A stretch of DNA of 32,000 nucleotides, taken from contig NZ_SNXU01000001.1 of the NCBI RefSeq assembly GCF_004362515.1, positions 3,757,633 through 3,789,632 on the forward strand, in the 5' to 3' direction. This DNA is from Actinokineospora alba. Its GTDB lineage: Bacteria > Actinomycetota > Actinomycetes > Mycobacteriales > Pseudonocardiaceae. The notes under the pieces are model-generated. The model had not been told where the DNA came from and searched no databases. It was given only the letters and a program-made list of their open reading frames with translations. Numbering within the stretch: position 1 is the stretch's first letter; every line of letters begins with the position of its first letter. Both the position numbers and the translations under genes were made by a program. Shown one piece after another: positions 2,360-29,670 of the stretch.

Positions 2360-3661
2360 ATGGCACGTATCGGTGACGGCGGAGACCTGCTCAAGTGCTC
2401 TTTCTGCGGAAAGAGCCAGAAGCAGGTGAAGAAGCTCATCGCCGGCCCCGGCGTCTACATCTGTGACGAGTGCATAGACCTGTGCAACGAGATCATCGAG
2501 GAGGAGCTGGCCGAGGCCGGCGACGTCAAACTCGATGAGCTCCCCAAGCCTGCCGAGATCCATGACTTCCTCGACAGCTATGTCATTGGCCAGGACGATG
2601 CCAAGCGTTCGCTCGCCGTGGCGGTATACAACCACTACAAGCGCATCCAGGCGGGCGACCGCGCCCGTCCCGAGGGCCGTGAGGGCCGGGAATCGCGCGA
2701 GGACACCGTCGAGCTGGCGAAGTCCAACATCCTCATGCTCGGCCCCACCGGCTGCGGCAAGACCTACCTCGCGCAGACGCTGGCGAAGCTGCTGAACGTT
2801 CCGTTCGCCATCGCCGACGCCACCGCGCTGACCGAGGCGGGCTACGTGGGCGAGGACGTCGAGAACATCCTGCTGAAGCTGATCCAGGCCGCCGACTACG
2901 ACGTCAAGCGCGCCGAGACCGGCATCATCTACATCGACGAGGTCGACAAGATCGCCCGAAAGAGCGAAAATCCGTCGATCACCCGCGACGTGTCCGGTGA
3001 GGGCGTGCAGCAGGCGCTGCTGAAGATCCTCGAGGGCACCACTGCGAGCGTCCCGCCGCAGGGCGGCCGCAAGCACCCGCACCAGGAGTTCATCCAGATC
3101 GACACGACGAACGTGCTGTTCATCGTGGCGGGCGCCTTCGCCGGTCTGGAGCGCATCATCCAGGACCGCGTGGGCAAGCGCGGCCTGGGCTTCGGCGCGG
3201 AGATCCGCTCGAAGGCCGACATCGACAACGCGGACTTCTTCTCCGACACGATGCCGGAAGACCTGATCAAGTTCGGCCTGATCCCCGAGTTCATCGGGCG
3301 TCTGCCGGTCCTGGCCAGCGTCACCAACCTCGACAAGGAGTCCCTGGTCCAGATCTTGACCGCGCCGAAGAACGCGCTGGTCAAGCAGTACCAGAAGCTC
3401 TTCGAGATGGACGGCGTCGAGCTGGAGTTCACCCCCACCGCGCTCGAAGCGGTCGCCGACCAGGCGATCCTGCGCGGCACGGGTGCCCGAGGCCTGCGCG
3501 CGATCATGGAGGAAGTCCTGCAGTCGGTGATGTACGACATCCCGAGCCGCACGGACGTCGCCAAGGTCGTCATCACCGAGCAGACGGTCCGCGAGAACGT
3601 CAACCCGACCATCGTCTCCCGCCAACCTTCCCGACGGGAGCGCCGCGAGAAGTCCGCCTGA
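2360..3661 (+). CDS. clpX: ATP-dependent Clp protease ATP-binding subunit ClpX
   Basis: N-terminal zinc-binding CSFCGK...CDECIDLC. Walker A GPTGCGKT and Walker [10 protein letters not shown]. Start taken at ATG 2360 ([17 protein letters not shown]), the canonical ClpX N-terminus. The track start at 2330 adds 10 unlikely residues. Confidence 0.96.
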
Positions 3662-3662
3662 C

Positions 3663-4271
3663 ATGGGCGGCGACTGGCCTTATGTCTTGCTGCTGCACGG
3701 CCTCACCGGCTCGGGCCGCGGCCACTGGCAGGGCTGGCTCGCACACGAACTGGCCGACGCGGGCGCGTCGGTCGAGGTCCCGGTGTTCAGCGAACCCGAC
3801 CACCCGTGTCTCGACACGTGGCTGGGCGAACTGAAACACCACCTCGAAGCCGCGCCCGCGAAGACCAAACGAGTCGTCATAGCCCAGGGCGTCGGCGCGG
3901 CACTGTGGCTCCACCACGCCGCCCGGACCCCACTGGACGACCACTCGCTGAGGGTGGACAACGTCCTCCTGGTAGCCCCACCCGGCGACTCCTGGCATGC
4001 CCCGGACGTCCGCGGCTTCACCCCAGTCCCCCTCGACGCAGCAGGCATCCGCCGTGCGGCCGGTTGGACCCAGTTGGCCACCGGCGAGGACGACGAGTGC
4101 CTGCCGGTGGACGAGGCGGTGAAGATGGCGGCGGAGCTGAAGATCGACCTGGACGTGATCCCAGCAGGCGGTGCCTTGGACACGAGGACCGGCTATGGCC
4201 CGTGGCCATCGGTCCTGGAGTGGATCCGCAACCGCCACACCCGCCTGACCGCAGTGGAACCCGCCTCCTGA
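3663..4271 (+). CDS. YdeN/RBBP9-family alpha/beta-hydrolase-fold protein, apparently lacking the Ser and His of the triad
   Basis: N-terminal [18 protein letters not shown] matches the family signature (ilHG..g....HW..WL). The nucleophile elbow position reads AQGVG instead of GHSLG. The Asp motif is retained ([10 protein letters not shown]). The final GGH position reads GGAL. The ATG lies 1 nt after the clpX stop. Confidence 0.6.
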
Positions 4272-20398: not shown

Positions 20399-20920
20399 TT
20401 GACCGAGCCAGTCTTCGGCGTCGACGCGGCAACCACCAACGCGGGCCTCGACCAGTGGGCCGCCGACATCCAAGCCAAGGCCGAACGCTATTCGGCCATG
20501 GAGCGCGAGGTCACCGCGGTCACCGCCACCGAGTCGTCCAGCGACGGCTCGATCCGGGTCACCGTCGACTCCGCGGGCGCGATCAAGGATCTCCAGTTCA
20601 CCGAGGACCTCAAGCGCCTGCCCGCCACCCGGATGGCCGAGCTGGTGCTCACCACCATGCGCAAAGCCCAGGCCCGCATCTCCGACCAGGTCGCCGAGAT
20701 CGTCCAGACCCGCGTCGGCGACGACCCGGAGACCACCGAGGCGGTCGTCGGCGCCTACCGTGCGCGGTTCCCCGATCCGGAGCCCGAGCAGGACGAGGCC
20801 GACGGGACCATGCGACTGGGCCAAGTCGACGAAGATGACCAACCCGGGGAACGGCCCCGCCCGCCGCGGCGTCCCAGGCCCGAGGACGACGACGATTTCG
20901 GTGGCTCGATCTTCCACTGA
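20399..20920 (+). CDS. YbaB/EbfC-family protein with acidic/Pro-rich C-terminal tail
   Basis: The core SSDGSIRVTVDSAGAIKDLQFTEDLKRLPATRMAELVLTTMRKAQARI matches the YbaB/EbfC pattern (G.V.V.V...G....L.i). TTG start lies 6 nt after GGGGAG. It is the first gene of the toxin operon. Confidence 0.7.
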   Translation: MTEPVFGVDAATTNAGLDQWAADIQAKAERYSAMEREVTAVTATESSSDGSIRVTVDSAGAIKDLQFTEDLKRLPATRMAELVLTTMRKAQARISDQVAEIVQTRVGDDPETTEAVVGAYRARFPDPEPEQDEADGTMRLGQVDEDDQPGERPRPPRRPRPEDDDDFGGSIFH

Positions 20921-20934
20921 TTCCTGGGGGTGTC

Positions 20935-21243
20935 ATGCCGGACGACAAGTACGACGTCGTCATCGACGAGCTGCGCGCGCACGCGGCCCGACTCGATGGC
21001 TTGTCCGCGCGGCTCAACACGGCCGCCAACGCGGGCAATGAGGTGACCATGGGCACCGAGGCGTACGGGAAGATCTGCGCGTTCTTCGTGCCCATCGTCC
21101 AGTCCGTCTCCATGCCGGGGCTGGACGCGCTGGCGAGCACGGCGGGCCGGATGGCCGAGACGGCGCAAGGCGTGAAGGCCACGGCCACCGCCTACGAGGA
21201 GACCGAGCAGGGCAACACCAGCGCGCTCGGTGGTCCCCGATGA
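20935..21243 (+). CDS. EspC/DUF2580-like small helical protein (type VII secretion-associated family)
   Basis: 102 aa. VVIDELRAHAARLDGLSARL......AYGKICAFFVP......L.....GRMAETAQGVKATATAYEETEQ follows the pattern of ESX secretion-associated EspC-like proteins. The stop overlaps the ATG of the RHS gene (ATGA at 21240-21243). Confidence 0.65.
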   Translation: MPDDKYDVVIDELRAHAARLDGLSARLNTAANAGNEVTMGTEAYGKICAFFVPIVQSVSMPGLDALASTAGRMAETAQGVKATATAYEETEQGNTSALGGPR

Positions 21244-24200
21244 CGAATCCCCTGATCGCGCAACGACAGGACTCGACCACCGCCATCAGCGGCATCGGCA
21301 TCGCCGAGTCCGCCGTCGACCTGCACAACGGCATCGAGTCGAAGTCGTGGGTGGAAGCAGGCATCGGCGGTGTCGGCACCGGCCTGGAGATGCTGTCGCT
21401 GGCTCTCGACCCGGTCGGCACCCTGCTCAGCTACGCCGTGTCATGGCTGATGGAGCACGTCAAACCGCTGTCGGACGCCCTCGACTGGCTCTGCGGCGAC
21501 GCCGACCAGATCGCCGCCTACGCCCAGACGTGGGCGAATGTGGCCAAGGAGACCGGAAAGGTCGCCGAGGACTTCGGCAACGAGGTCAAGAACGGCACCG
21601 CGGGCTGGGCAGGCGAGGCCGCCGACGCCTACCGCGCCTCCGCCGCCCTGCAGAACGAACAGGTCTCCGCGGCCGCGACCTGCGCGGACTCCATCGGCTC
21701 CACAGTCCAGGTCGTCGGCGTCCTGGTCGGCGCGGTCCGCGAGATCGTCCGCGACCTCGTCGCCGAGTGCGTCGCCACCCTGATCGCCCGCATCCCGCAG
21801 TGGATAGCCGAAATCGGCGGCACCCTCGGCATCGCCACCCCCCACGTCGTCGCGTCGGCCACCGCGCTGATCGCCAAGTGGGTCAACCGGATCAAGGACT
21901 TCATCAAGGCCCTCACCAAGTCCCTGGACTCCCTTTCGGGCCTGCTGAAGAAACTCGACGAGATCTGGGCGGGCATCAAGAAGTCCCTCCCCGGCACCCG
22001 CAGCCCTGACGTCACCCCCACCCGAGCATCGGACGGGGTTACCTCCCCGAACGCCTCGACCACGACGCCATCCGGCTCGACCTCGCCCAGCAGCGCCAGT
22101 CCCGACGGCTCTTCGACCAGCCCGTCCAGCACCACAACCCCAAGCGGCACAACGTCACCGGACACGTCGACCACCTCGCCGAGCAGCACCTCGCCGAGCG
22201 GCACGACCTCCCCGAACGGTTCATCGAGCACCAGCCCCAACGGCTCGCGCAGCCAGGTGGGCGACGACCCCAAGGCCAGCGCCCGGCCCGAGCCGAACCG
22301 GAAGACCTGCGGCGACCCGATCGACGTCGCGTCCGGCGAGATGCTGCTCACCCAGGACGATGTCCGCCTGGGCGGCGCTCTTCCGCTGGTGCTGTCGCGA
22401 ACGCACCTGTCGACCTACCGGATCGGCACCCGGTTCGGCGCGTCCTGGGCGTCGACTCTTGATCAGCGTCTTGAGGTCGACGACGAGGGCGTCTGTTTCG
22501 TCACCGAAGACGGCATGGTGCTGGTCTACCCGCATCCAGGCGACTCGCCGGTGTTGCCTGCCGAGGGGCCCCGGTGGCCGTTGCTGCGCTCCGCGGACGG
22601 CGGATACTCGGTCACCGACCCGGAGTCCGGCCACACCAGGATGTTCGCCGCGGCGACCGGCCCCATCCGGCCGATCATTTCGATCAATGACCGCAACGGA
22701 CACCGCGTCGACTTCGATCGCGGTGCGGATGGCGTGGCCACCGCGGTGCGTCACTCCGGTGGCTACCGAGTCGACGTGCGCAGCGAAGCCGGGCTGGTCA
22801 CGGCACTGGTGCTGGCCGGGGCCGACGAGATCACCCTGATCCGGTACGGCTACGACGCGGCGCGCAGGCTCACCGAGGTCATCAACTCCTCTGGAGCCGC
22901 ACTTCGGTTCGACTACGACTCCGCGGGCCGCATCACGCGGTGGCAGGACCGAAACGAGATGTGGTATCGCTACGGCTACGACGAGCGCGGCCGGTGCGTG
23001 CTCAACGAGGGCGCGGACGGTTACCTCTCCGGCGCTTTCGAGTACCGCGAACGGCTGACCGTGTACACGGATTCCCTCGGCCACCGCACGGAATTCCACC
23101 TGAACGACGCCTACCAGGTAGTCCGCGAGGTGGACCCGCTCGGTGGCGTGACACTGTCCGATTGGGACCGGCACGACCGGCTGCTGGCACGGACCGACCC
23201 GCTCGGTCGAGTGACGCGCTACCGCTACGACGACGACGGCAACCTCGTCGGCATCGTCCGCCCCGACGGTACGGAGTCTTCCGCGACCTACAACGCGCTG
23301 GGGTTGCCGCTGACGGTGACCGAGGTCGACGGCGCCGTGTGGCGACGCACCTACGACGACTGCGGCAACCTGCTCTCCATCACCGACCCGATGGGCGCGG
23401 TGACGACGTTCGATCTCGACGCTCATGGCAATGTCACCGCGATCACCGACCCCCTCGGCGCCGTGCGTCGGGTGGAGTCCGACCAAGCGGGTCTTCCCGT
23501 CGTGGTCACCGATCCGCTCGGTGCGAGTACCCGATACAGCCGTGACCGGTTCGGGCGCATCGCCGCCATGACAGACCCGCTCGGTGGCAGCACCCGACTG
23601 GGCTGGACGATCGAGGGCAAGCTCATCTCCCGCACCCAGGCGGACGGCGCGGTCGAGCGCTGGCGGTACGACGGCGAGGGCAATCTTGTCGAGCACATCG
23701 ATCCCGCCGGGAACACCACGAGGACGGCGTACACGGGGTTCGATCAGCCCGCTTGGCAGGTCGGCGCCGACGGAGCGCGCTTGGAGTTTGGCTACGACAC
23801 GAACCTGAGGCTCACGTCGGTCACCAACCCGCAGGGTCTCGTCTGGCGCTACACCTATGACGCTGTCGGCAATCTTGCCGAGGAAACCGACTTCAACGGC
23901 AGGCGGCTGACGTACTCCTACGATGCCGCGGGCCAGCTGGTGGGCCGCGCGAACGGCTTGGGCGAGCTCGTCTCCTTCGACCGTGACGTGCTCGGACGCT
24001 TGCGCGCCAAGCATTCCGGGCCCGCGACGACGTCCTACGAACACGACGCGCTCGGGCGGATGACCAGGACGACAAGTCCGGACGCCGATGTCCACTTCGA
24101 GCGGGATGTCCTGGGCCGGGTCCTCGCGGAGACCACCAATGGTCGAACTGTTCGGTCGGTGTACGACCCGCGGGGCAACCGAATCCGCCGCGAGACCCCC

Positions 24201-25757
24201 AGCGGCGCGGTCAGCGAATGGGAGTACGACGCGGCCGGCAACGCCGTGGCACTGTTCACCGGCGGCAGGCGGATGTCGTTCGGCTACGATGCGGCAGGTC
24301 GGGAGGTCCACCGCACGCTCGACTCCGGTACGGCGCTCGCCCAGGATTGGGATGCCAACCACCGCCTGCGGTCGCAGACACTCACCGCACGTGGCATGAA
24401 CGTCCAGCGACGGGACTACCAGTACCGGCTGGACGGGTGCCTGACCGCGGTCGACGACCGGATCGCGGGCGCACGCCGCTACGACCTGGACCCGGCGGGT
24501 CGTGTCACCGCGGTGCACGGCGCCGGGTGGACCGAGCGCTACGCCTACGACGCCGCGGGCAATCTCACCCAGGCGGCGTGGCCCGGCGAGCATCCCGCTG
24601 AGGGAACACGGGAGTACACGGGAACCAGGGTCCGCCGGTCGGGCACCGTCCACTTCGAACACGATGTGCAGGGGCGGGTCCTGCTTCGGCGGCAGCGTGC
24701 TCTTTCCGGCCAGATCCGGGCGTGGACCTACACCTGGGACGCTGAAGACCGCTTGGTCGCCGTCACCACCCCGGACGGCGCCCGGTGGCGCTATCGCTAC
24801 GACGGTCTGGGAAGGCGCACCGCCAAGCAGCGACTGGCCTCGACCGGCACCGAGGTGGTCGAGCAGGTCGACTTCGCCTGGGACGGTCTCGTCCTCGCCG
24901 AGCAGACCACGTCCGGAGCGGTTCTCGACGGACCCGACCCGGCGGAACGCACCACCACGTGGGAGTTCGAGCCGGGCACGTTCCGGCCGGTCGCGCAGCG
25001 GGAACGGGTTCGCACCTCACCGCAGACGTGGATCGACGCGCAGTTCTACGCCCTGATAACCGACCTGATCGGCACGCCGACGGAGATGGTCGACTCGGAC
25101 GGCGCACTGGCGTGGCGTTCGCAGACCACGCTGTGGGGTGCCGCCTTGGCTGGGCTGGGTGGGGGTCCGTACTGCCCGCTGCGGTTTCCCGGTCAATACC
25201 ACGACGTGGAAACCGGGCTCAACTACAACGTCCACCGCTACTACGACCCGGCCACCGGGCACTACGGTTCCGCCGACCCGCTTGGCCTGCTGGCGGGACC
25301 GAACCCGTTCGCCTACGTCGGCAACCCGACGCTTCGGTCGGACCCGTTGGGCCTCACGGATTGCGCGCGGGCCAAGAAGCTGGCGAACAAGACCAGCGAG
25401 CGCGCGCGGAACGGCAGCGTCCGGGAGGCGCCGAACTATCATGGGCGGCTTTCGCGGGAACGCGAACTCGAGATCCTGTCCAACCCGGACGGCGTCTACC
25501 ACTCGACGGGTTCGGGCGGCCGGTTCATCTACCGCCAGGGCGACGACATCGTGATCACCGAAGGTCCTGGAAGCAAGGCGGGCCAGTTGGTGACCAGTTA
25601 CGGGCCATCCGGTCCGCGCGGTGACAGCGGTGCGGCGATCTTCGGCGGGTCCTCGGCTGATCCTGGGATGCCTATCACCCACGACATGATCGTCAACGGG
25701 ACGATCCCGACACCGGATGGCGGGACCGTTCCGCCCGCCATCCAGATCCTTCCCTAA
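21240..25757 (+). CDS. Polymorphic toxin: N-terminal WXG100-like (T7SS-type) domain, S/T/P linker, DUF6531-like domain, RHS/YD-repeat shell, and variable C-terminal domain
   Basis: 1505 aa. Residues 1-250 are helical, with LDWLCGDADQIAAYAQTWANVA and the W-x-G motif GWAGEAADAY (nt 21606-21614). CGDPIDVASGEML marks the RHS N-terminal plug. More than 20 YD repeats are present (e.g. RYGYDAARRLT, YRYDDDGNLV, YSYDAAGQLV). The core end reads YYDPATGHYGSADPLGLLAGPNPFAYVGNPTLRSDPLGL. Confidence 0.92.
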   Translation: MTNPLIAQRQDSTTAISGIGIAESAVDLHNGIESKSWVEAGIGGVGTGLEMLSLALDPVGTLLSYAVSWLMEHVKPLSDALDWLCGDADQIAAYAQTWANVAKETGKVAEDFGNEVKNGTAGWAGEAADAYRASAALQNEQVSAAATCADSIGSTVQVVGVLVGAVREIVRDLVAECVATLIARIPQWIAEIGGTLGIATPHVVASATALIAKWVNRIKDFIKALTKSLDSLSGLLKKLDEIWAGIKKSLPGTRSPDVTPTRASDGVTSPNASTTTPSGSTSPSSASPDGSSTSPSSTTTPSGTTSPDTSTTSPSSTSPSGTTSPNGSSSTSPNGSRSQVGDDPKASARPEPNRKTCGDPIDVASGEMLLTQDDVRLGGALPLVLSRTHLSTYRIGTRFGASWASTLDQRLEVDDEGVCFVTEDGMVLVYPHPGDSPVLPAEGPRWPLLRSADGGYSVTDPESGHTRMFAAATGPIRPIISINDRNGHRVDFDRGADGVATAVRHSGGYRVDVRSEAGLVTALVLAGADEITLIRYGYDAARRLTEVINSSGAALRFDYDSAGRITRWQDRNEMWYRYGYDERGRCVLNEGADGYLSGAFEYRERLTVYTDSLGHRTEFHLNDAYQVVREVDPLGGVTLSDWDRHDRLLARTDPLGRVTRYRYDDDGNLVGIVRPDGTESSATYNALGLPLTVTEVDGAVWRRTYDDCGNLLSITDPMGAVTTFDLDAHGNVTAITDPLGAVRRVESDQAGLPVVVTDPLGASTRYSRDRFGRIAAMTDPLGGSTRLGWTIEGKLISRTQADGAVERWRYDGEGNLVEHIDPAGNTTRTAYTGFDQPAWQVGADGARLEFGYDTNLRLTSVTNPQGLVWRYTYDAVGNLAEETDFNGRRLTYSYDAAGQLVGRANGLGELVSFDRDVLGRLRAKHSGPATTSYEHDALGRMTRTTSPDADVHFERDVLGRVLAETTNGRTVRSVYDPRGNRIRRETPSGAVSEWEYDAAGNAVALFTGGRRMSFGYDAAGREVHRTLDSGTALAQDWDANHRLRSQTLTARGMNVQRRDYQYRLDGCLTAVDDRIAGARRYDLDPAGRVTAVHGAGWTERYAYDAAGNLTQAAWPGEHPAEGTREYTGTRVRRSGTVHFEHDVQGRVLLRRQRALSGQIRAWTYTWDAEDRLVAVTTPDGARWRYRYDGLGRRTAKQRLASTGTEVVEQVDFAWDGLVLAEQTTSGAVLDGPDPAERTTTWEFEPGTFRPVAQRERVRTSPQTWIDAQFYALITDLIGTPTEMVDSDGALAWRSQTTLWGAALAGLGGGPYCPLRFPGQYHDVETGLNYNVHRYYDPATGHYGSADPLGLLAGPNPFAYVGNPTLRSDPLGLTDCARAKKLANKTSERARNGSVREAPNYHGRLSRERELEILSNPDGVYHSTGSGGRFIYRQGDDIVITEGPGSKAGQLVTSYGPSGPRGDSGAAIFGGSSADPGMPITHDMIVNGTIPTPDGGTVPPAIQILP
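21990..22274 (+). repeat. Low-complexity Ser/Thr/Pro-rich linker coding region inside the RHS gene
   Basis: Residues ~251-345 read TSPNASTTTPSGSTSPSSASPDGSSTSPSSTTTPSGTTSPDTSTTSPSSTSPSGTTSPNGSSSTSPNGS, with reiterated (S/T)(S/T)SP units. Confidence 0.85.
25356..25754 (+). other. 133-aa C-terminal domain after the RHS DPLGL boundary (presumed toxin module, family not recognised)
   Basis: It begins right after DPLGL (25341-25355): TDCARAKKLANKTSERARNGSVREAPNYHGRLSRERELEILSNPDGVYHSTGSGGRFIYRQGDDIVITEGPGSKAGQLVTSYGPSGPRGDSGAAIFGGSSADPGMPITHDMIVNGTIPTPDGGTVPPAIQILP. It has no HNH, HExxH, deaminase or obvious nuclease signature that I can recognise. Confidence 0.6.
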
Positions 25758-25770
25758 TAGGGTGGAGCCT

Positions 25771-26508
25771 GTGTCGGAATCCATCGGTCGGTTCGAAGTA
25801 CGCCCAGGTCGCGGCCTCGCGGTCACACCACGTCTGATCATCGGAAGCCGGTCGCTGATGGTGAGCCCGTGCCAGGACGGAGCGGCCCACGAGCGGCACG
25901 TGCTGGCCACTGTGGGCAGCGGCAACTGGTACCAGTCCGAGCATGACGAGCTGCGGTTCTCGCCGTCGGAGCGGGTGCTGGAGAGTGTCTGGCTGCACAT
26001 CCCCGAGGTCAACGCCGATCTCGCGGAGCCGCTGGCGCGGTGGCGGGCCCTACCGTCGACGCCGGGCACTCTCGGGTTGGTCGGATCGGACCCGTTCGAC
26101 CAGGTTCCAGCGACGACGCGCATGTTCGGTGCCGACGGGACACTCGTGTGCGCCTATGGGGCCATCGCGTCCGGGGCGGAGACTCGGCTTGAGGTCGCCG
26201 AAGGCTGCTCGGTGGTGGTCGGCGATGGTGACCTGGTTGGTTGGTTCATCGAGGATGCCGAGCGGTTCGTGGTGCGGTCGTGGGAGTTTCCGGGATCGGC
26301 GGTCGAGGACCGTGAGTTCCAAACACGCATGGCGGAGTTCTTCGACCTCGTCGCGGAACCGAACCTCGAGGCCCTGGAAGACGGCGAACCGGACGTGATC
26401 GAGCGCCTCTCCGTGTTGCGCGACGGGATCGATCTCGGCGGTGGGGTTCAGGCCAGGCGGGCCGCGCTGCGGGAAACGGTCGCCGAGTTGGTCGACTTCT
26501 TCGGATGA
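25771..26508 (+). CDS. Hypothetical protein, positional candidate for cognate immunity protein of the RHS toxin
   Basis: ORF 25717..26508. Start chosen at GTG 25771 just after GGTGGAG (25761-25767), 13 nt past the toxin stop. It encodes an acidic 245-aa cytoplasmic-looking protein with no recognisable motifs. Confidence 0.6.
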   Translation: MSESIGRFEVRPGRGLAVTPRLIIGSRSLMVSPCQDGAAHERHVLATVGSGNWYQSEHDELRFSPSERVLESVWLHIPEVNADLAEPLARWRALPSTPGTLGLVGSDPFDQVPATTRMFGADGTLVCAYGAIASGAETRLEVAEGCSVVVGDGDLVGWFIEDAERFVVRSWEFPGSAVEDREFQTRMAEFFDLVAEPNLEALEDGEPDVIERLSVLRDGIDLGGGVQARRAALRETVAELVDFFG

Positions 26509-26538: not shown

Positions 26539-26955
26539 ATGGGCGACAGCGGACGTGCGGCCATCCTCCGCTCTGCCGGTTTCGAGGTCGTCGGCACCGT
26601 GGAGTCCGCGGGAGGCCTGCTTCCGGAGCAGGCCTGGCGCCGCGTCATCAATCTGGACGTGGTCCCCGTCGCCGAGGTCGACGACGATGACCTGGACCGC
26701 GTCGACGCCGAGTGGCGCGGGCTTGCCGACGAGAGCGGGCTGTTCGCGGACGACGGCTCGTTCCTCATCAGCCCGCCCGGTCCCGGCGCCATGCGGTTGC
26801 CCTGGGTGCGGGTCCGGTTGACGGCCGCGACAAAGCTGGCCGGGCAGCTCCACGCCAGTCCCGGTCAGCCCGAGTTCGTCACGGCGGCGTTGGACGGGCA
26901 CGTGGTGCTTGGCGTCACCAGCGAAGAGCATGGAGTGTGGCTGGTCCGGGGCTAG
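26539..26955 (+). CDS. Hypothetical 138-aa acidic protein (possible second or orphan immunity protein)
   Basis: ATG lies after GAGGCAGGGG, 30 nt downstream of the preceding gene on the same strand. No recognisable motifs. Its stop overlaps the convergent GNAT stop within GCTAGC. Confidence 0.55.
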   Translation: MGDSGRAAILRSAGFEVVGTVESAGGLLPEQAWRRVINLDVVPVAEVDDDDLDRVDAEWRGLADESGLFADDGSFLISPPGPGAMRLPWVRVRLTAATKLAGQLHASPGQPEFVTAALDGHVVLGVTSEEHGVWLVRG

Positions 26956-27482
26956 CGGCCCAGTGGGATCTCGAAGTGCACCGTCTGGAACCCGATCGGG
27001 TCGCCGTCCCGGTTGTCGTACACCTCCGTGGCGATCGACCGCCAGAACGGCTCCGCCCCCGGCACCCGCGTGTCCGTGTGCAGGTAGAGCACCGAGTACG
27101 TCGGCTCGTTCGCCACGAACTCGGTGGCCGCCCGGACCAACTCCCGGGCCAGCCCACACCGCCGGTGCTCCGGCCGCACGTACACCCGGAACAGCTGCGC
27201 CGTCGCCCCGCCCGCGTACCGCTCAGCCAGCCACCCCGGGTGCGGCGGGCTGGCGGGGGCGACAGCGCGGACGCCGGTGGTGGCGACGATCTCGTCACCT
27301 TTCGCCGCAACGAAAAGGGCGTGTCGCGGCGGTTCCAGGTAGGCACCGCGCAGGTCGATGGCGTCGGCGTGCCATTCGGGGCGGTAGCCGTAGCCGAACT
27401 CGCGGTAGAAAGTGTCGAGCATGACGCCGCGGGCGCCGTCGAGGTCGGTTTCGCGGGCCTGGCGGATGTCGTATGGGCTCAT
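26952..27482 (-). CDS. GNAT-family N-acetyltransferase
   Basis: ORF 26952..27731. The true start is ATG 27482 (MSPYDIRQARETD), which overlaps the ABC ATPase stop (ATGA). The acetyl-CoA motif VRPEHRRCGLAREL is present. The upstream 83 residues of the track ORF overlap the ATPase gene. Confidence 0.85.
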   Translation of the reverse strand: MSPYDIRQARETDLDGARGVMLDTFYREFGYGYRPEWHADAIDLRGAYLEPPRHALFVAAKGDEIVATTGVRAVAPASPPHPGWLAERYAGGATAQLFRVYVRPEHRRCGLARELVRAATEFVANEPTYSVLYLHTDTRVPGAEPFWRSIATEVYDNRDGDPIGFQTVHFEIPLGR

Positions 27483-28897
27483 GGGTGCGCTTCCTTGATG
27501 GTGTGGCCGAGCAGGCCGATGGTCACGGGGTGTTGCGGGTCGCTCAGGACGTCGTGGGCGTCGCCATGTTCGACGACTTTCCCCTTGTCCAGCACGACGA
27601 TCCGGTCGGCCAGTCGGGACACGACGCCGAGGTCGTGGCTGATCAGGACGACCGTGCAGGGTAAGCCTGCCAGCAGGTCGAGCAGGCCTGCTTGGGTGAT
27701 GGTGTCCAGCCCGGACGTGATCTCGTCGCACACCAGCACGTCCGGGCGGGCCAGCAGCGCCCGGACGAGCGCGGCCCGCTGCAGTTCGCCGCCGGACAGG
27801 CCAGCCGGGCGTCGCCTGGCTGTCTCCGCGCTGACGCCGACTTTCGCCAACTCGTCCAACGCGAGAGCGGACGCCTCAAGCTTCGAGGCGCCACGCAGGC
27901 GCACGGCGGTCCGGGAGATCTGGTCCAGCACCGTACGGTGCTCGTCGAACGAAGCGCGCGCGTCCTGGAAGACGTACTGCGCCTGCGTAAGTCGGGGCCG
28001 GACGCCGTCGACCAGAATTGAGCCGTCCCAAGTGGAGTGCAGGCCCACCACGCACCGGGCGAGGGTGGTCTTCCCACTGCCGGAACGGCCGACCACGCCG
28101 AGACATTCGCCGACGCCGGCCGCGACCGTCACCTTGTGCAGCACCTCGGCCGACCGGTGCCGGGCGCTGAGGTCCCGCACTTGCAGCCGAGGCCCTCGGT
28201 CCGCGGCGGCGGGTGGCACCTGGATCTGGGGCTGGGCCTCGATCAGCGCCCGCGTGTAGTCGTCGCGCGGCGAGGTCAGCACCTCGTCGGCCGGGCCCGC
28301 CGCGACTACCCGACCCGCCCGCAGCACGACGATCTCGTCCGCCAGCGCCCGCACCACCTCGAGGTCGTGGGTCAGGATCACCACCGCCACGCCTTGCCGG
28401 GCGACCTCCGCCAACTCGGCGACGATCTCCGCGCGGGTGATGGCGTCCTGGCCGGTCGTCGGCTCGTCGGCGATGATCACCGCCGGTTCCCGGACCAAAA
28501 TCTGCGCCAGCACGACCCGCTGCTGCTGTCCGCCGGAAAGCTGATGCGGATACCGGTCGAGCAACTCCGCGGGCACCCGAGCCCGCCGCAGCGCTGTGGC
28601 GATCGCCGCTTCGTCGCCGATCTCGCGGAACACCGCGCCGATCCGCCGAACCGGGTTGAGCGCGGCCGACGGGTGCTGCGGCACGAACCCCGCGTTCCCG
28701 CGGACGGTCACGCTTCCGCTGACCCGCACCCCGGCGGCGTGCTCGCCCAGCAGCGCGAGCCCGGTGGTCGTCTTCCCGCTGCCGGACTCGCCGACCAGCG
28801 CCAACACCCGCCCGGCCGCCAACGCGAAACTCACCCCGTCGACCAGGGTCCGGGTGTCCGTCTCGGCGCGCAGACCCTCCACATGCACGACGGTCAC
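27479..28897 (-). CDS. ABC transporter ATP-binding protein, fused double ATPase (DppD/DppF-like)
   Basis: It carries two full cassettes: GESGSGKTT / LSGGQQQR / IIADEPTTGQD, and GRSGSGKTT / LSGGELQR / LVCDEITSGLD. GTG 28897 overlaps the permease stop (GTGA). Confidence 0.9.
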   Translation of the reverse strand: MTVVHVEGLRAETDTRTLVDGVSFALAAGRVLALVGESGSGKTTTGLALLGEHAAGVRVSGSVTVRGNAGFVPQHPSAALNPVRRIGAVFREIGDEAAIATALRRARVPAELLDRYPHQLSGGQQQRVVLAQILVREPAVIIADEPTTGQDAITRAEIVAELAEVARQGVAVVILTHDLEVVRALADEIVVLRAGRVVAAGPADEVLTSPRDDYTRALIEAQPQIQVPPAAADRGPRLQVRDLSARHRSAEVLHKVTVAAGVGECLGVVGRSGSGKTTLARCVVGLHSTWDGSILVDGVRPRLTQAQYVFQDARASFDEHRTVLDQISRTAVRLRGASKLEASALALDELAKVGVSAETARRRPAGLSGGELQRAALVRALLARPDVLVCDEITSGLDTITQAGLLDLLAGLPCTVVLISHDLGVVSRLADRIVVLDKGKVVEHGDAHDVLSDPQHPVTIGLLGHTIKEAHP

Positions 28898-29670
28898 GTC
28901 CGCGCCTCCTTCCGCAAAGCCTTGTCGAACACCAGGTTCAGCCCGATCGACAGAGCCACGATCAGCAGCGCGGGGACCACGACGGCCAGCGGCTGCAGGA
29001 ACAGCCCGCCGCGGTTGCGGTCGACCATCACCGCCCAGTCCGCCGCGTCCGGCGCCACCCCGATCCCGAGGAAGCTCGCCGACGCCACCAGGTACAGCGC
29101 GCCGGTCAGCCGGACACCCACGTCCGCCGCGAGCGTGCGCGCCATGGACCGTCCGATGTAGACGATCGATTTCCGCCACCATGACTCGCCTTGCAACCGC
29201 ATCGCCTCCAGTGCGGGCCGCCCGGCGATCTCCAAGGCAGCCGCCCGGGAGATCCGCGCGACATCAGGAAAGTTGATCAGCGTCACGATGCCGACGATCA
29301 CCGCGATGCCCTGTCCGGCGATCGTGGCCAGCAGGATCAGCACCAGCAGCGACGGGATCGCCAACAGCAGATCCAACGGCCGCATCAGGAGCTCGTCGAC
29401 CGCCCGCACCCGTGACGTCGCCGCCAGCACACCCCACGGCACACCGACGACGTACGCGCCCGCCGTGGCCAGCAGCGCCACCAGGGCCACCGACTGGCCG
29501 CCTGCCAGCACCTGGTGCCACACGTCCCGCCCGACGAAGTCGGTGCCCAGGAAGTGGTCCGGCATGAACGGCGCGCCCCGGGTCTGCGTCTCGGGCACGA
29601 ACAGCGGCCCGAGCAGTGCCAACAGCAGCGGGACCGCGATCAGCAGCCCACCCACCCCGAACCGCTTCAT
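28894..29670 (-). CDS. ABC transporter permease (DppC/OppC-like)
   Basis: It is a multi-TM protein with an N-terminal FLGTD..GRDV motif and an EAA-loop-like AALEIAGRPALEAMRLQG, typical of peptide/nickel-type permeases. Its ATG overlaps the upstream permease stop (ATGA). Confidence 0.88.
   Translation of the reverse strand: MKRFGVGGLLIAVPLLLALLGPLFVPETQTRGAPFMPDHFLGTDFVGRDVWHQVLAGGQSVALVALLATAGAYVVGVPWGVLAATSRVRAVDELLMRPLDLLLAIPSLLVLILLATIAGQGIAVIVGIVTLINFPDVARISRAAALEIAGRPALEAMRLQGESWWRKSIVYIGRSMARTLAADVGVRLTGALYLVASASFLGIGVAPDAADWAVMVDRNRGGLFLQPLAVVVPALLIVALSIGLNLVFDKALRKEART

Follow-up and report, generated by a model that had tools for sequence, protein, structure and literature searches.

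The 133 residues that end an Rhs protein of Actinokineospora alba (hereafter CT) are, judging from sequence comparisons, a genuine toxin domain that is widespread but missing from the curated databases, and together with the product of the next gene (ORFd1) they likely form a toxin-immunity pair of a family in which neither partner is annotated. CT would be an encapsulated payload neutralised by ORFd1, and we hold it, with slightly more confidence than doubt, to be most likely an endoribonuclease that needs no metal and has a BECR or BECR-like fold. The genes and domains discussed lie within a stretch of 32,000 nucleotides (the window) and are the following:

21240..25757, + strand: Rhs/YD polymorphic toxin gene of A. 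alba, 1505 aa (WP_091372596.1)
25134..25355, + strand: Rhs-associated core (aa 1299-1372), ending in the second DPLGL
25356..25754, + strand: CT, putative toxin domain, 133 aa (aa 1373-1505), of a polymorphic-toxin family without annotation
25771..26508, + strand: ORFd1, predicted cognate immunity protein, 245 aa, GTG start (WP_091372591.1)
26539..26955, + strand: ORFd2, 138 aa, co-directional

The Rhs protein and the boundary of its C-terminal domain

From the N- to the C-terminus, the Rhs protein consists of a WXG100-like N-terminus, a Ser/Thr/Pro linker, DUF6531 (aa 358-430), a YD-repeat shell, the Rhs-associated core and CT. The YD/RHS repeats of the shell match PF05593 (RHS_repeat, E=1.9e-94, 19 stretches) and TIGR01643 (E=2.5e-86), and PF03527 (RHS) covers aa 1274-1303. 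EspC-like and YbaB-like genes are located immediately upstream of the Rhs gene. The motif DPLGL occurs twice, at aa 1346-1350 and 1368-1372, and the core was considered to end with the second occurrence because its alignment to TIGR03696 (NCBIfam Rhs_assc_core, E=1.1e-19, aa 1299-1372, model positions 4-76 of 76) runs to aa 1372, the end of the model. This boundary agrees with the initial annotation, in which the 133-aa segment after DPLGL was taken to be the Rhs payload. The first residue of CT is 1373 (Thr, acg, nt 25356), and its last codon (ccc, Pro) ends at nt 25754. The second DPLGL is the presumed site of an aspartyl autoproteolysis that would free CT inside the shell, cleavage being something that we infer from known Rhs/TcC proteins. 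Export of the Rhs protein is probably by a type VII (ESX-like) route, as suggested by the WXG100-like N-terminus and the EspC-like/YbaB-like neighbours.

CT is small, rich in Gly, Ser and Pro (44 of 133 residues, 33%) and basic at its start (9 Lys/Arg vs 3 Asp/Glu in residues 1-34), just as first described, and the description of it as devoid of recognisable catalytic motifs also held when the sequence was scanned, HExxH, GHH, the deaminase pattern [CH]xE...PCxxC, STS and Walker A all being absent. Its pI is near neutral (6.8, the median of the toxin family being 9.1). The initial annotation had further noted more A/T-ending codons in CT and the two downstream ORFs than in valS, as would suit a horizontally exchanged tip. 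GC3 is indeed lower than in valS (0.95), with values of 0.91 for the Rhs N-terminus, 0.855 for the Rhs core, 0.82 for CT, 0.817 for ORFd1 and 0.878 for ORFd2, but the drop is not specific to the tip: it starts at approximately nt 22000-22300 and not at the DPLGL boundary, and a GC3 of 0.82 is also found in other genes of the window, such as that of the ABC ATPase at 27479-29182. Because the whole Rhs core shares the dip, GC3 provides no evidence for tip-specific exchange, and it was rejected as a sign of such transfer.

A widely distributed family without annotation

Homology searches with CT gave 22 homologues at E-values of 4e-47 to 8e-16 and 160 representatives of the domain at E<=1e-3, 64 of these at E<=1e-30; clustered at 50% identity, the family comprises approximately 160 clusters. 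The domain ends exactly at the protein C-terminus in 58 of the 80 full-length matches, and within 9 residues of it in 79. It is carried by Rhs, PT-HINT, eCIS/DUF4157 and LXG proteins (among 52 long members, PT-HINT was found in 8, eCIS_core in 7, RHS_repeat in 7 and LXG in 1). The earlier suggestion of an exchangeable tip module is thereby borne out by the domain itself, one and the same domain ending Rhs, PT-HINT, eCIS-core and LXG proteins. At 50-80% identity it occurs in at least five phyla (Actinomycetota, Bacillota, Bacteroidota, Pseudomonadota and Chloroflexota), and the copy of Kibdelosporangium is 80% identical.

CT has no match at E<=1 in Pfam-A or NCBIfam, and no matches were found in Pfam and NCBIfam for CT, ORFd1 and ORFd2 alike. 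Searching the PDB by sequence and profile returned only a spurious antibody (7kqy, VH/CH1, two stretches of 13.7 bits), and when 5.8 billion proteins were searched with a profile (E<=10), only members of the family came back, all of them "hypothetical" and lacking any Pfam domain. Phage genomes (tblastn) and IMG/VR viral contigs yielded no relatives; in PHROGs, a weak match to phrog_10516 (unknown function) over approximately 30 residues is uninformative. The PT1-PT9 toxins of Nachmias et al. were considered and rejected, since no motif match was found in one supplement of that work and the solved PT1 and PT7 structures are absent among the PDB matches. A confident profile or structure match to an established toxin family, against which the initial annotation had weighed its reading, was looked for in Pfam, NCBIfam and the PDB and with Foldseek, and none was found.

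The downstream genes

ORFd1 starts 13 nt downstream of the Rhs gene, with GGGTGGAG located 4-11 nt upstream of its GTG start codon, and codes for an acidic protein (pI 4.5) without transmembrane segment or signal peptide. In 30 of the 31 related loci that were checked for a downstream ORF, members of one family of 224-273 aa directly follow the toxin, the gap being mostly -4 to +14 nt, and held-out members of this immunity family gave E-values of 1e-12 to 2e-44. The family is acidic throughout (pI 4.3-5.2), against a median pI of 9.1 for the toxin family, and no hydrophobic segment is present in either. Membership of this conserved downstream family makes ORFd1, at the level of sequence, the likely cognate immunity protein of CT. 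The immunity family is new to both Pfam and the PDB, having no match in either. The name SUKH-4, given in UniRef to a 216-aa call of ORFd1, was rejected, as none of 29 members matched a Pfam SUKH family at E<=1.

ORFd2 is probably co-transcribed. Of the two downstream ORFs, only ORFd1 can be kept in the module: ORFd2 is not conserved, tblastn finding no homologue in any related locus, and was rejected as a second immunity gene.

Predicted fold and conserved residues

Conservation was assessed in an alignment of 55 diverse members of the family (A4), and secondary structure was assigned with DSSP on two independent AlphaFold models (pLDDT 92.2 for CT with AF2, and 89.7; pTM 0.86 for both). The elements distinguished in CT are:

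25362..25409, + strand: predicted helix alpha1 (CT aa 3-18), basic and amphipathic (DSSP on model)
25437..25448, + strand: Y28-H29-G30-R31 motif with the candidate catalytic His29 (A4)
25455..25601, + strand: predicted core of a helix and a four-strand beta-meander, BECR-type (DSSP, two models)
25593..25604, + strand: T80-S81-Y82-G83 in strand 4 (A4)
25602..25754, + strand: Gly/Pro-rich C-terminal lobe, CT aa 83-133 (A1, A4, DSSP)

Both models have the same order of elements, namely (strand)-helix-four-strand beta-meander-Gly/Pro-rich lobe-final strand, the core in model 1 being made of H34-42, E46-50, E57-61, E64-68 and E78-82, with the same order in model 2; a strand or bridge before the helix and the final strand (aa 128-132) are predicted in both. 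The conserved domain within CT is approximately 115 aa long, and helix alpha1 is found in Rhs and non-Rhs members alike (alignments A1 and A4). His29 is invariant in the 55 members and position 31 is either Arg or His, the motif reading YHGRL, YH[APG]H[FL] or YHGDTxH depending on the subfamily. Tyr82 is likewise invariant, and Thr80 and Gly83 are kept in at least 90% of the members. The best-conserved part of the family is the C-terminal lobe (aa 83-133), which contains the GDSGAA helix start, a DPGxPxT motif, a short helix and the final strand. GDSGAA at the start of a helix would fit a Ser/Thr-His hydrolase too.

Resemblance to BECR and BECR-like ribonucleases

[quoted passage not shown] In their order of elements, the CT models have a helix and then a four-strand beta-meander, and His29 (invariant in the 55 members) and Thr80 (kept in at least 90% of them) would be the corresponding residues, with His29 sitting five residues before the DSSP helix and not inside it. 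The element order agrees with the published descriptions of the BECR (PMC5512222) and BECR-like (bioRxiv 10.64898/2026.09.18.752725) cores.

When approximately 130 sequences were scanned against Pfam for remote matches, the family matched by most members was PBECR3 (7 of 55, best E=0.013), each time over the helix-plus-meander region; for the consensus of one subfamily, the two best-scoring families were PBECR3 (E=0.0064) and PBECR2 (E=0.015). The scores of 13-17 bits are about half the gathering cut-offs (27-30), and given the number of sequences scanned one match with an E-value of approximately 0.006 is expected by chance. The initial statement that CT has no toxin signature is therefore right as far as the curated libraries are concerned, which are silent, but is to be qualified by these faint sub-threshold PBECR3/PBECR2 matches and by the BECR-type order of elements.

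Foldseek searches of the PDB with the two models and of BFVD returned nothing at E<=0.001, all E-values being at least 0.09 (BFVD) or 0.6 (PDB). Two of the BFVD matches had probabilities of 0.94 and 0.93 over 53 columns (rmsd 2.1-2.3), and one of these two targets is a "minor capsid protein" of a phage; the BFVD matches further include a DUF4258 protein. Weak PDB matches include the colicin E5 CRD, RNase T1, RelE, CdiA-CT NC101, BrnT and ParE, and many matches are single beta-propeller blades, which reflect only a beta-meander. A low-power comparison of the family profile with approximate sequences of RelE and barnase (hhalign) found nothing, and no known BECR family was matched significantly, whether by sequence profile (Pfam) or in 3D (Foldseek on PDB/BFVD). 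The models and conserved residues of CT suggest a BECR or BECR-like metal-independent RNase, short of establishing membership of the family.

Alternative readings

The family may be a non-canonical one, an idea that we hold only tentatively and with more doubt than belief. Either a new catalytic centre (His29, Thr80, Tyr82 and Ser/Thr91) and the lobe would act on a non-RNA cytoplasmic target, or a BECR-like RNase would need a host factor held by the lobe, as SRLase1 needs EF-Tu (bioRxiv 10.64898/2026.09.18.752725); in both cases the 245-aa immunity protein would have a new fold.

That CT is a toxin of another chemistry or fold altogether, with His29, Tyr82, Thr80, Ser/Thr91 and the lobe acting on a nucleotide, a cofactor or a protein and the BECR likeness being that of a generic helix-plus-meander, appears rather unlikely. 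It would agree with the absence of significant matches in Pfam, NCBIfam, PDB sequences and Foldseek PDB/BFVD, with an immunity family that is large and new to Pfam and the PDB, and with the fact that conservation is highest in the lobe (aa 83-133), which is not part of BECR. However, the remote matches that recur are all to BECR families or to toxins of BECR fold, the order of elements and the combination of His with a strand-4 Thr agree with BECR, and a basic toxin family with an acidic immunity family is typical of toxins directed at nucleic acids.

A minimal H-Y-type ADP-ribosyltransferase (ART) with a cytoplasmic target, in which the His of YHG and the Tyr of TSYG would bind NAD+ as in diphtheria-toxin or PARP-type enzymes, is very unlikely. 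The YHG of CT would be similar to the motif around the His in diphtheria toxin and exotoxin A, and the invariant Tyr82 lies on a later strand, but in A4 no invariant Glu, Asp or Gln is found downstream of Tyr82, and the hairpin beta-meander differs from the split-sheet ART core. No Pfam Tox-ART family was matched at E<=10 by any of the 55 members, no ART is among the top 50 Foldseek PDB matches of either model, and the one ART match that was obtained (member P0087 to PF01129, E=0.051) is at chance level.

It is highly unlikely that CT is a small Ser/Thr-His hydrolase (an esterase, amidase or peptidase) using Ser91 as nucleophile and His29 as general base. GDSGAA (aa 89-94) follows a strand and a loop and opens helix 89-96, its SG pair is kept throughout the family, and His29 does not vary; position 91, however, can be Ser or Thr, with Gly-His there in one member, no hydrolase family or fold was matched (Pfam, Foldseek), the domain is very small for known Ser-hydrolase folds, and a cytoplasmic acidic immunity protein is better suited to a nucleic-acid toxin. 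Least probable of all is that CT is inactive in A. alba, being a tip that has decayed or is inert, or one that only plugs the Rhs shell, which its pI of 6.8 against a family median of 9.1 could indicate: H29, T80, Y82, G83, G86, G92 and T108, all invariant or nearly so in the family, are present, the Rhs ORF is intact, CT is 80% identical to the Kibdelosporangium copy, and an intact cognate immunity gene follows.

Proposed mode of action

As the RNase that we favour, CT would be enclosed in the YD-repeat shell and may be freed by an aspartyl-protease motif ending in the second DPLGL. The Rhs protein would be exported, probably by type VII (ESX-like) secretion, and CT would act in the cytoplasm of the target cell, the acidic ORFd1 (approximately 245 aa) neutralising it in the producer. 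The helix and four-strand beta-meander would present His29, Arg/His31, Thr80 and Tyr82 on an exposed face of the sheet, where activation of a 2'-OH would lead to the cutting of a tRNA or rRNA with formation of a 2',3'-cyclic phosphate and to an arrest of translation, and the Gly/Pro-rich C-terminal lobe may hold the RNA backbone or a host factor. Observations that fit an RNase less well are the near-neutral pI of CT, unlike that of most members, the length of the immunity protein, 245 aa being unusually large for the partner of a small RNase, and the GDSGAA motif, which would suit a Ser/Thr-His hydrolase as well.

Rhs tips without assigned function are common, and finding one is not surprising. 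This family is an unusually tractable one, with a strongly conserved domain of approximately 115 aa in at least five phyla and four delivery systems, an obvious immunity partner that likewise lacks annotation, and only a few candidate catalytic residues. Once characterised, CT and ORFd1 would provide Pfam and NCBIfam with a new toxin-immunity pair and annotate approximately 160 "hypothetical" clusters, and they offer a handle on the little-studied actinomycete Rhs toxins that are apparently exported via type VII.

Comparison with known systems

The A. alba protein shares with the Rhs/TcC cocoon toxins (Tre23-type Rhs, TccC3) a YD shell, a core that closes with DPxGL, a C-terminal toxin that is variable and encapsulated, and an immunity gene downstream. 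It differs from them in that its delivery looks like type VII (WXG100-like, EspC-like, YbaB-like) and not PAAR/VgrG-T6SS or Tc-type, and in that CT falls outside the toxin families characterised so far.

The Salmonella ribotoxin SRLase1 (STox4), which is carried by an Rhs protein, belongs to the BECR-like superfamily (bioRxiv 10.64898/2026.09.18.752725); the comparison made here is based on its published conserved residues and description. Like CT, it directly follows DPLGL in a polymorphic toxin, and it too is found in many phyla and with PT-HINT and LXG carriers. Topologies of the SRLase1 type have an additional strand at the C-terminus and, in some cases, one ahead of the helix; in element order, the two CT models predict strands at these places too, which may be equivalent. 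CT was nevertheless rejected as an SRLase1: Arg70, Asp72, His85, His97 and Asn99 have no counterpart in A4, where the R-x-D ... H ... H-x-N catalytic set is absent from the conservation pattern and the residues of CT are H29, R/H31, T80 and Y82. In contrast to SRLase1, strands 1 and 2 are well formed in the CT models, and SRLi1 is described as small.

With the canonical BECR toxins (colicin D, colicin E5, CdiA-CT NC101, RelE and BrnT), CT would share the character of a small, soluble C-terminal domain that acts in the cytoplasm and has an adjacent acidic inhibitor, as well as a helix followed by a beta-meander, with weak Foldseek matches to 3ao9, 5i4r, 3bpq and 3u97. It differs from them in lacking a significant sequence or structure match (E>=0.6) and in its set of candidate catalytic residues, and its immunity protein of approximately 245 aa is far larger than ImmD, CdiI and RelB-type partners. 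The only recurrent Pfam families among CT members are PBECR3 (PF18812) and PBECR2 (PF18810), RNase domains found in the polyvalent and MuF proteins of phages (Iyer et al. 2017, PMC5512222). To these the CT family adds a conserved lobe of 50 residues, rich in Gly and Pro, and a Tyr that is invariant and lies two residues past the Thr, and it is found not in polyvalent proteins of virions but in Rhs, PT-HINT, eCIS and LXG toxins with an immunity gene of their own.

The C-terminal payload of the Rhs protein

The Rhs gene encodes a protein with 19 RHS-repeat stretches (PF05593, E = 1.9e-94), the main features of which are listed below.

Features of the Rhs gene and its product
21240-25757, + strand: Rhs ORF, 1505-aa product
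Rhs aa 358-430: DUF6531 (Pfam match)
Rhs aa 1274-1303: RHS domain PF03527 (Pfam match)
Rhs aa 1299-1372: Rhs-associated core TIGR03696 (NCBIfam), model positions 4-76 of 76

The protein contains DPLGL at aa 1346 and again at aa 1368, and the TIGR03696 alignment stops on the second copy, which bears out the boundary drawn in the initial annotation, according to which a 133-aa payload follows this motif. The C-terminal segment (CT) begins with residue 1373, an acg codon at nt 25356, and its final sense codon stops at 25754. It had been described as Gly/Ser/Pro-rich with a basic start; indeed, these three residues make up 33% of the 133 aa, and the first 34 residues include 9 K/R against 3 D/E. 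A motif scan of the whole segment likewise found none of the toxin motifs reported as missing by eye (HNH, GHH, HExxH, deaminase, ART and TNT). No Pfam-A or NCBIfam model matches CT at E ≤ 1, and the sole match among PDB sequences is a spurious antibody. Rhs-borne members of the CT family carry a Cys 2–4 residues past the DPxGL cleavage motif (LTDC, LAGC, LMDC, LNPC, LASC), as in CT itself (Cys3, 25362-25364) and the member proteins P0005, P0007, P0010, P0011, P0014, P0025 and P0044. Further upstream, a Ser/Thr/Pro-rich low-complexity linker (21990-22253, Rhs aa 251-338; S/T/P at 65 of 88 residues) sits between a WXG-like N-terminal domain and DUF6531.

A widespread family of C-terminal domains

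A word-indexed search returned 22 relatives of CT (E 4e-47 to 8e-16, identity 54–71%), and a HMMER profile run against 1.84 billion representatives returned 160 proteins at E ≤ 1e-3, 64 of them at E ≤ 1e-30. All relatives are named “hypothetical protein” or generic Rhs at source, with no precomputed Pfam domain on the CT part. The domain ends on the last residue of the protein in 58 of 80 full-length matches, and at most 9 residues from it in 79. The parts upstream of it in 52 long members include PT-HINT (8), eCIS_core/DUF4157 (7), RHS repeats (7) and LXG (1). When one genome per species was scanned, the domain appeared at 30 loci with 45–80% identity, in Actinomycetota (Kibdelosporangium at 80%, Saccharopolyspora, Streptomyces, Kitasatospora, Amycolatopsis), Bacillota (Paenibacillus, Lysinibacillus, Brevibacillus, Enterococcus), Bacteroidota (Hymenobacter, 64%), Pseudomonadota (Pectobacterium, Rhodobacteraceae) and Chloroflexota (Ktedonobacteraceae). 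The family is thus real and widespread and, being found at the C-terminus of varied carriers across phyla, behaves as an exchangeable polymorphic-toxin tip.

A horizontally exchanged module had been proposed on the grounds that CT and the two downstream ORFs use more A/T-ending codons than valS. The spread of the family and the variety of its carriers support the proposal far better than codon usage does.

GC3 of valS, the Rhs gene and the downstream ORFs
valS: 0.95
Rhs N-terminal region: 0.91
Rhs core: 0.855
CT: 0.82
ORFd1 (first downstream ORF): 0.817
ORFd2 (second downstream ORF): 0.878

The codon claim is numerically right, but does not hold as a mark of a separately acquired tip, since the drop in the sliding-window profile (about 0.93 to about 0.86) occurs at nt 21700-22300, beyond which the profile is flat, with no step at 25356, and other genes of the window also have GC3 near 0.82.

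In Lysinibacillus (CP010820.1) and a JGI metagenome, the domain is found in short orphan cassettes of 143–210 aa without a Rhs shell, each followed by a cognate ORF of 242–253 aa, within arrays of other toxin/immunity modules (CdiI_4, SUKH-3, Imm47, Imm7, Toxin-deaminase, Rhs fragments). In P0055 (1500 aa), the Pfam domain Ntox1 (“RNase-like toxin”, aa 1280-1361) directly precedes the CT domain (aa 1374-1499), placing tandem toxin domains in one protein. P0185 (locus L035, 3001-3243), 80 aa long and stand-alone, is related to the beta-meander part (...VITAYGQSG...) and has neither the His motif nor the C-terminal lobe; it is followed by an overlapping 152-aa ORF (3243-3701) in what looks like a toxin-antitoxin layout, adjoined by nitrite-reductase genes. 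The CT domain is kept better than the Rhs core next to it; in the Kibdelosporangium locus, for instance, identity is 80% versus 63%.

The predicted immunity partner

Taking the ORF that starts beside the toxin stop codon in each related locus, we found one of 224–273 aa in nearly all of them, in 25 loci spaced -4 to +14 nt from that codon. ORFd1 matched 18 of these proteins directly (phmmer), and an HMM built from ORFd1 and those 18 recovered 11 held-out ones at E = 1.7e-44 to 1.7e-12, so that one family accounts for 30 of the 31 downstream proteins. Its members are uniformly acidic (pI 4.3–5.2; ORFd1 pI 4.5, net charge -21) and have no hydrophobic segment, and no relatives of the family were found in Pfam or the PDB. 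In the same loci (L005-L034), identity to the window copies is 50–80% for the toxin versus 11–41% for the partner. The most likely start codon of ORFd1 is the GTG at 25771, preceded by GGGTGGAG; it gives the 245-aa product annotated by NCBI. In UniRef, a shorter, 216-aa call of ORFd1 (25771-26508) bears the name “SUKH-4 immunity protein”; none of 29 members matched a SUKH model of the current Pfam-A at E ≤ 1.

The next gene is:
26539-26955, + strand: ORFd2, 138 aa, WP_091372587.1

ORFd2 has no Pfam or NCBIfam match, and as no related toxin locus contains a homologue, it is placed outside the toxin-immunity module. It has a close homologue in Actinokineospora xionganensis and may be either unrelated or an orphan immunity gene. 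A convergent ORF (26952-27731, - strand) overlaps the ORFd2 stop codon by 4 nt and thereby marks the end of the toxin operon.

Predicted structure and likely activity

AlphaFold2 models of CT and of a 37%-identical member of another subfamily (pLDDT 92.2 and 89.7, respectively; pTM 0.86 for both) share the same predicted order of elements: a basic helix (aa 3-18), a short strand or bridge, the YHGR loop, a helix (aa 34-42), four strands with short hairpins (aa 46-50, 57-61, 64-68, 78-82), and a Gly/Pro-rich lobe with two short helices leading to a last strand (aa 128-132). Among 55 diverse aligned members, His29, Tyr82 and Gly86 are invariant, while Thr80, Gly83, Gly92, Thr108 and several other Gly and Pro are kept in at least 90%. 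Thr80 and Tyr82, two residues apart in strand 4, would project from a single face of the sheet. At position 31, one subfamily has Arg and the others have His, the subfamily motifs being YHGRL, YH[APG]H[FL] and YHGDTxH.

[quoted passage not shown] In the predicted order of its elements, and with conserved His29 and Thr80, the modelled CT domain fits these descriptions. PBECR3 is matched by more members than any other Pfam family (7 of 55, best E = 0.013), in each case over the helix-plus-meander region, and the top two families for the YHGDTxH consensus are PBECR3 (E = 0.0064, residues 18-79) and PBECR2 (E = 0.015). The best BFVD fold matches have probabilities of 0.94 and 0.93 (53 columns, rmsd 2.1–2.3), one target being a phage “minor capsid protein”; matches ranked below these include a DUF4258 protein (probability 0.57) and proteins of the polyvalent type. 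Insignificant PDB matches include the colicin E5 CRD and RNase T1 for the CT model, and RelE, CdiA-CT NC101, BrnT and ParE for the other. The toxins are basic, with a median pI of 9.1, and their partners acidic, as is usual for nucleic-acid-directed toxins. These signals from PBECR, BFVD, PDB and pI are each weak, but independent, and point the same way. Together with the fit to the BECR descriptions, they give roughly an even chance that CT is a BECR or BECR-like RNase acting on tRNA or rRNA; the domain is not assigned to any named family.

The lack of a significant match, and the very strong conservation of the lobe that is not part of the BECR fold, could instead reflect new chemistry on a generic helix-plus-meander scaffold, which we consider unlikely. 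The YHG and TSYG motifs suggest a minimal H-Y-type ADP-ribosyltransferase, to which a single chance-level PF01129 match can be added, but with no invariant acidic residue and neither a Tox-ART nor an ART fold match, this is improbable. GDSGAA (aa 89-94, 25620-25637), at a predicted helix start, resembles a nucleophile elbow or an anion-binding helix cap; a Ser/Thr-His hydrolase built on it is slightly less probable still, given that position 91 varies between Ser and Thr across the family and that the immunity protein is cytoplasmic and acidic. An inert tip is the least credible reading, as none of the conserved residues has been lost and the immunity gene is intact.

Upstream genes and a possible export route

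Two genes lie just upstream of the Rhs gene:
20399-20920: YbaB-like gene (PF02575, E = 6.5e-9), just upstream of the EspC-like gene
20935-21243: EspC-like gene (PF10824, E = 7e-12), just upstream of the Rhs gene

The EspC-like stop codon and the Rhs ATG share an ATGA overlap (21240-21243), and the Rhs N-terminus (aa 67-209, nt 21438-21866) has sub-threshold matches to WXG100_2, PPE and WXG100. The trio of YbaB-like, EspC-like and Rhs genes, the latter with a WXG-like N-terminus, recurs with the Kibdelosporangium orthologue; the Saccharopolyspora loci (L007, L008) have part of it. The neighbours, the N-terminus and the recurrence of the trio suggest export by the ESX/type VII route, a question separate from the CT finding.

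Comparison with known systems

The toxin and immunity families are both absent from Pfam, NCBIfam and the PDB. CT does not belong to SRLase1, a Rhs-borne BECR-like ribotoxin with different conserved residues, or to PT1 or PT7 of Nachmias et al., whose solved structures it does not match; the one supplement of that study which was compared contains no motif match. The family may be covered by the August 2026 preprint on BECR classification. As a Rhs toxin-immunity module, the system is standard in kind, and CT with ORFd1 is unsurprising as a find but makes a clearly delimited candidate that is widely distributed and amenable to experiment.
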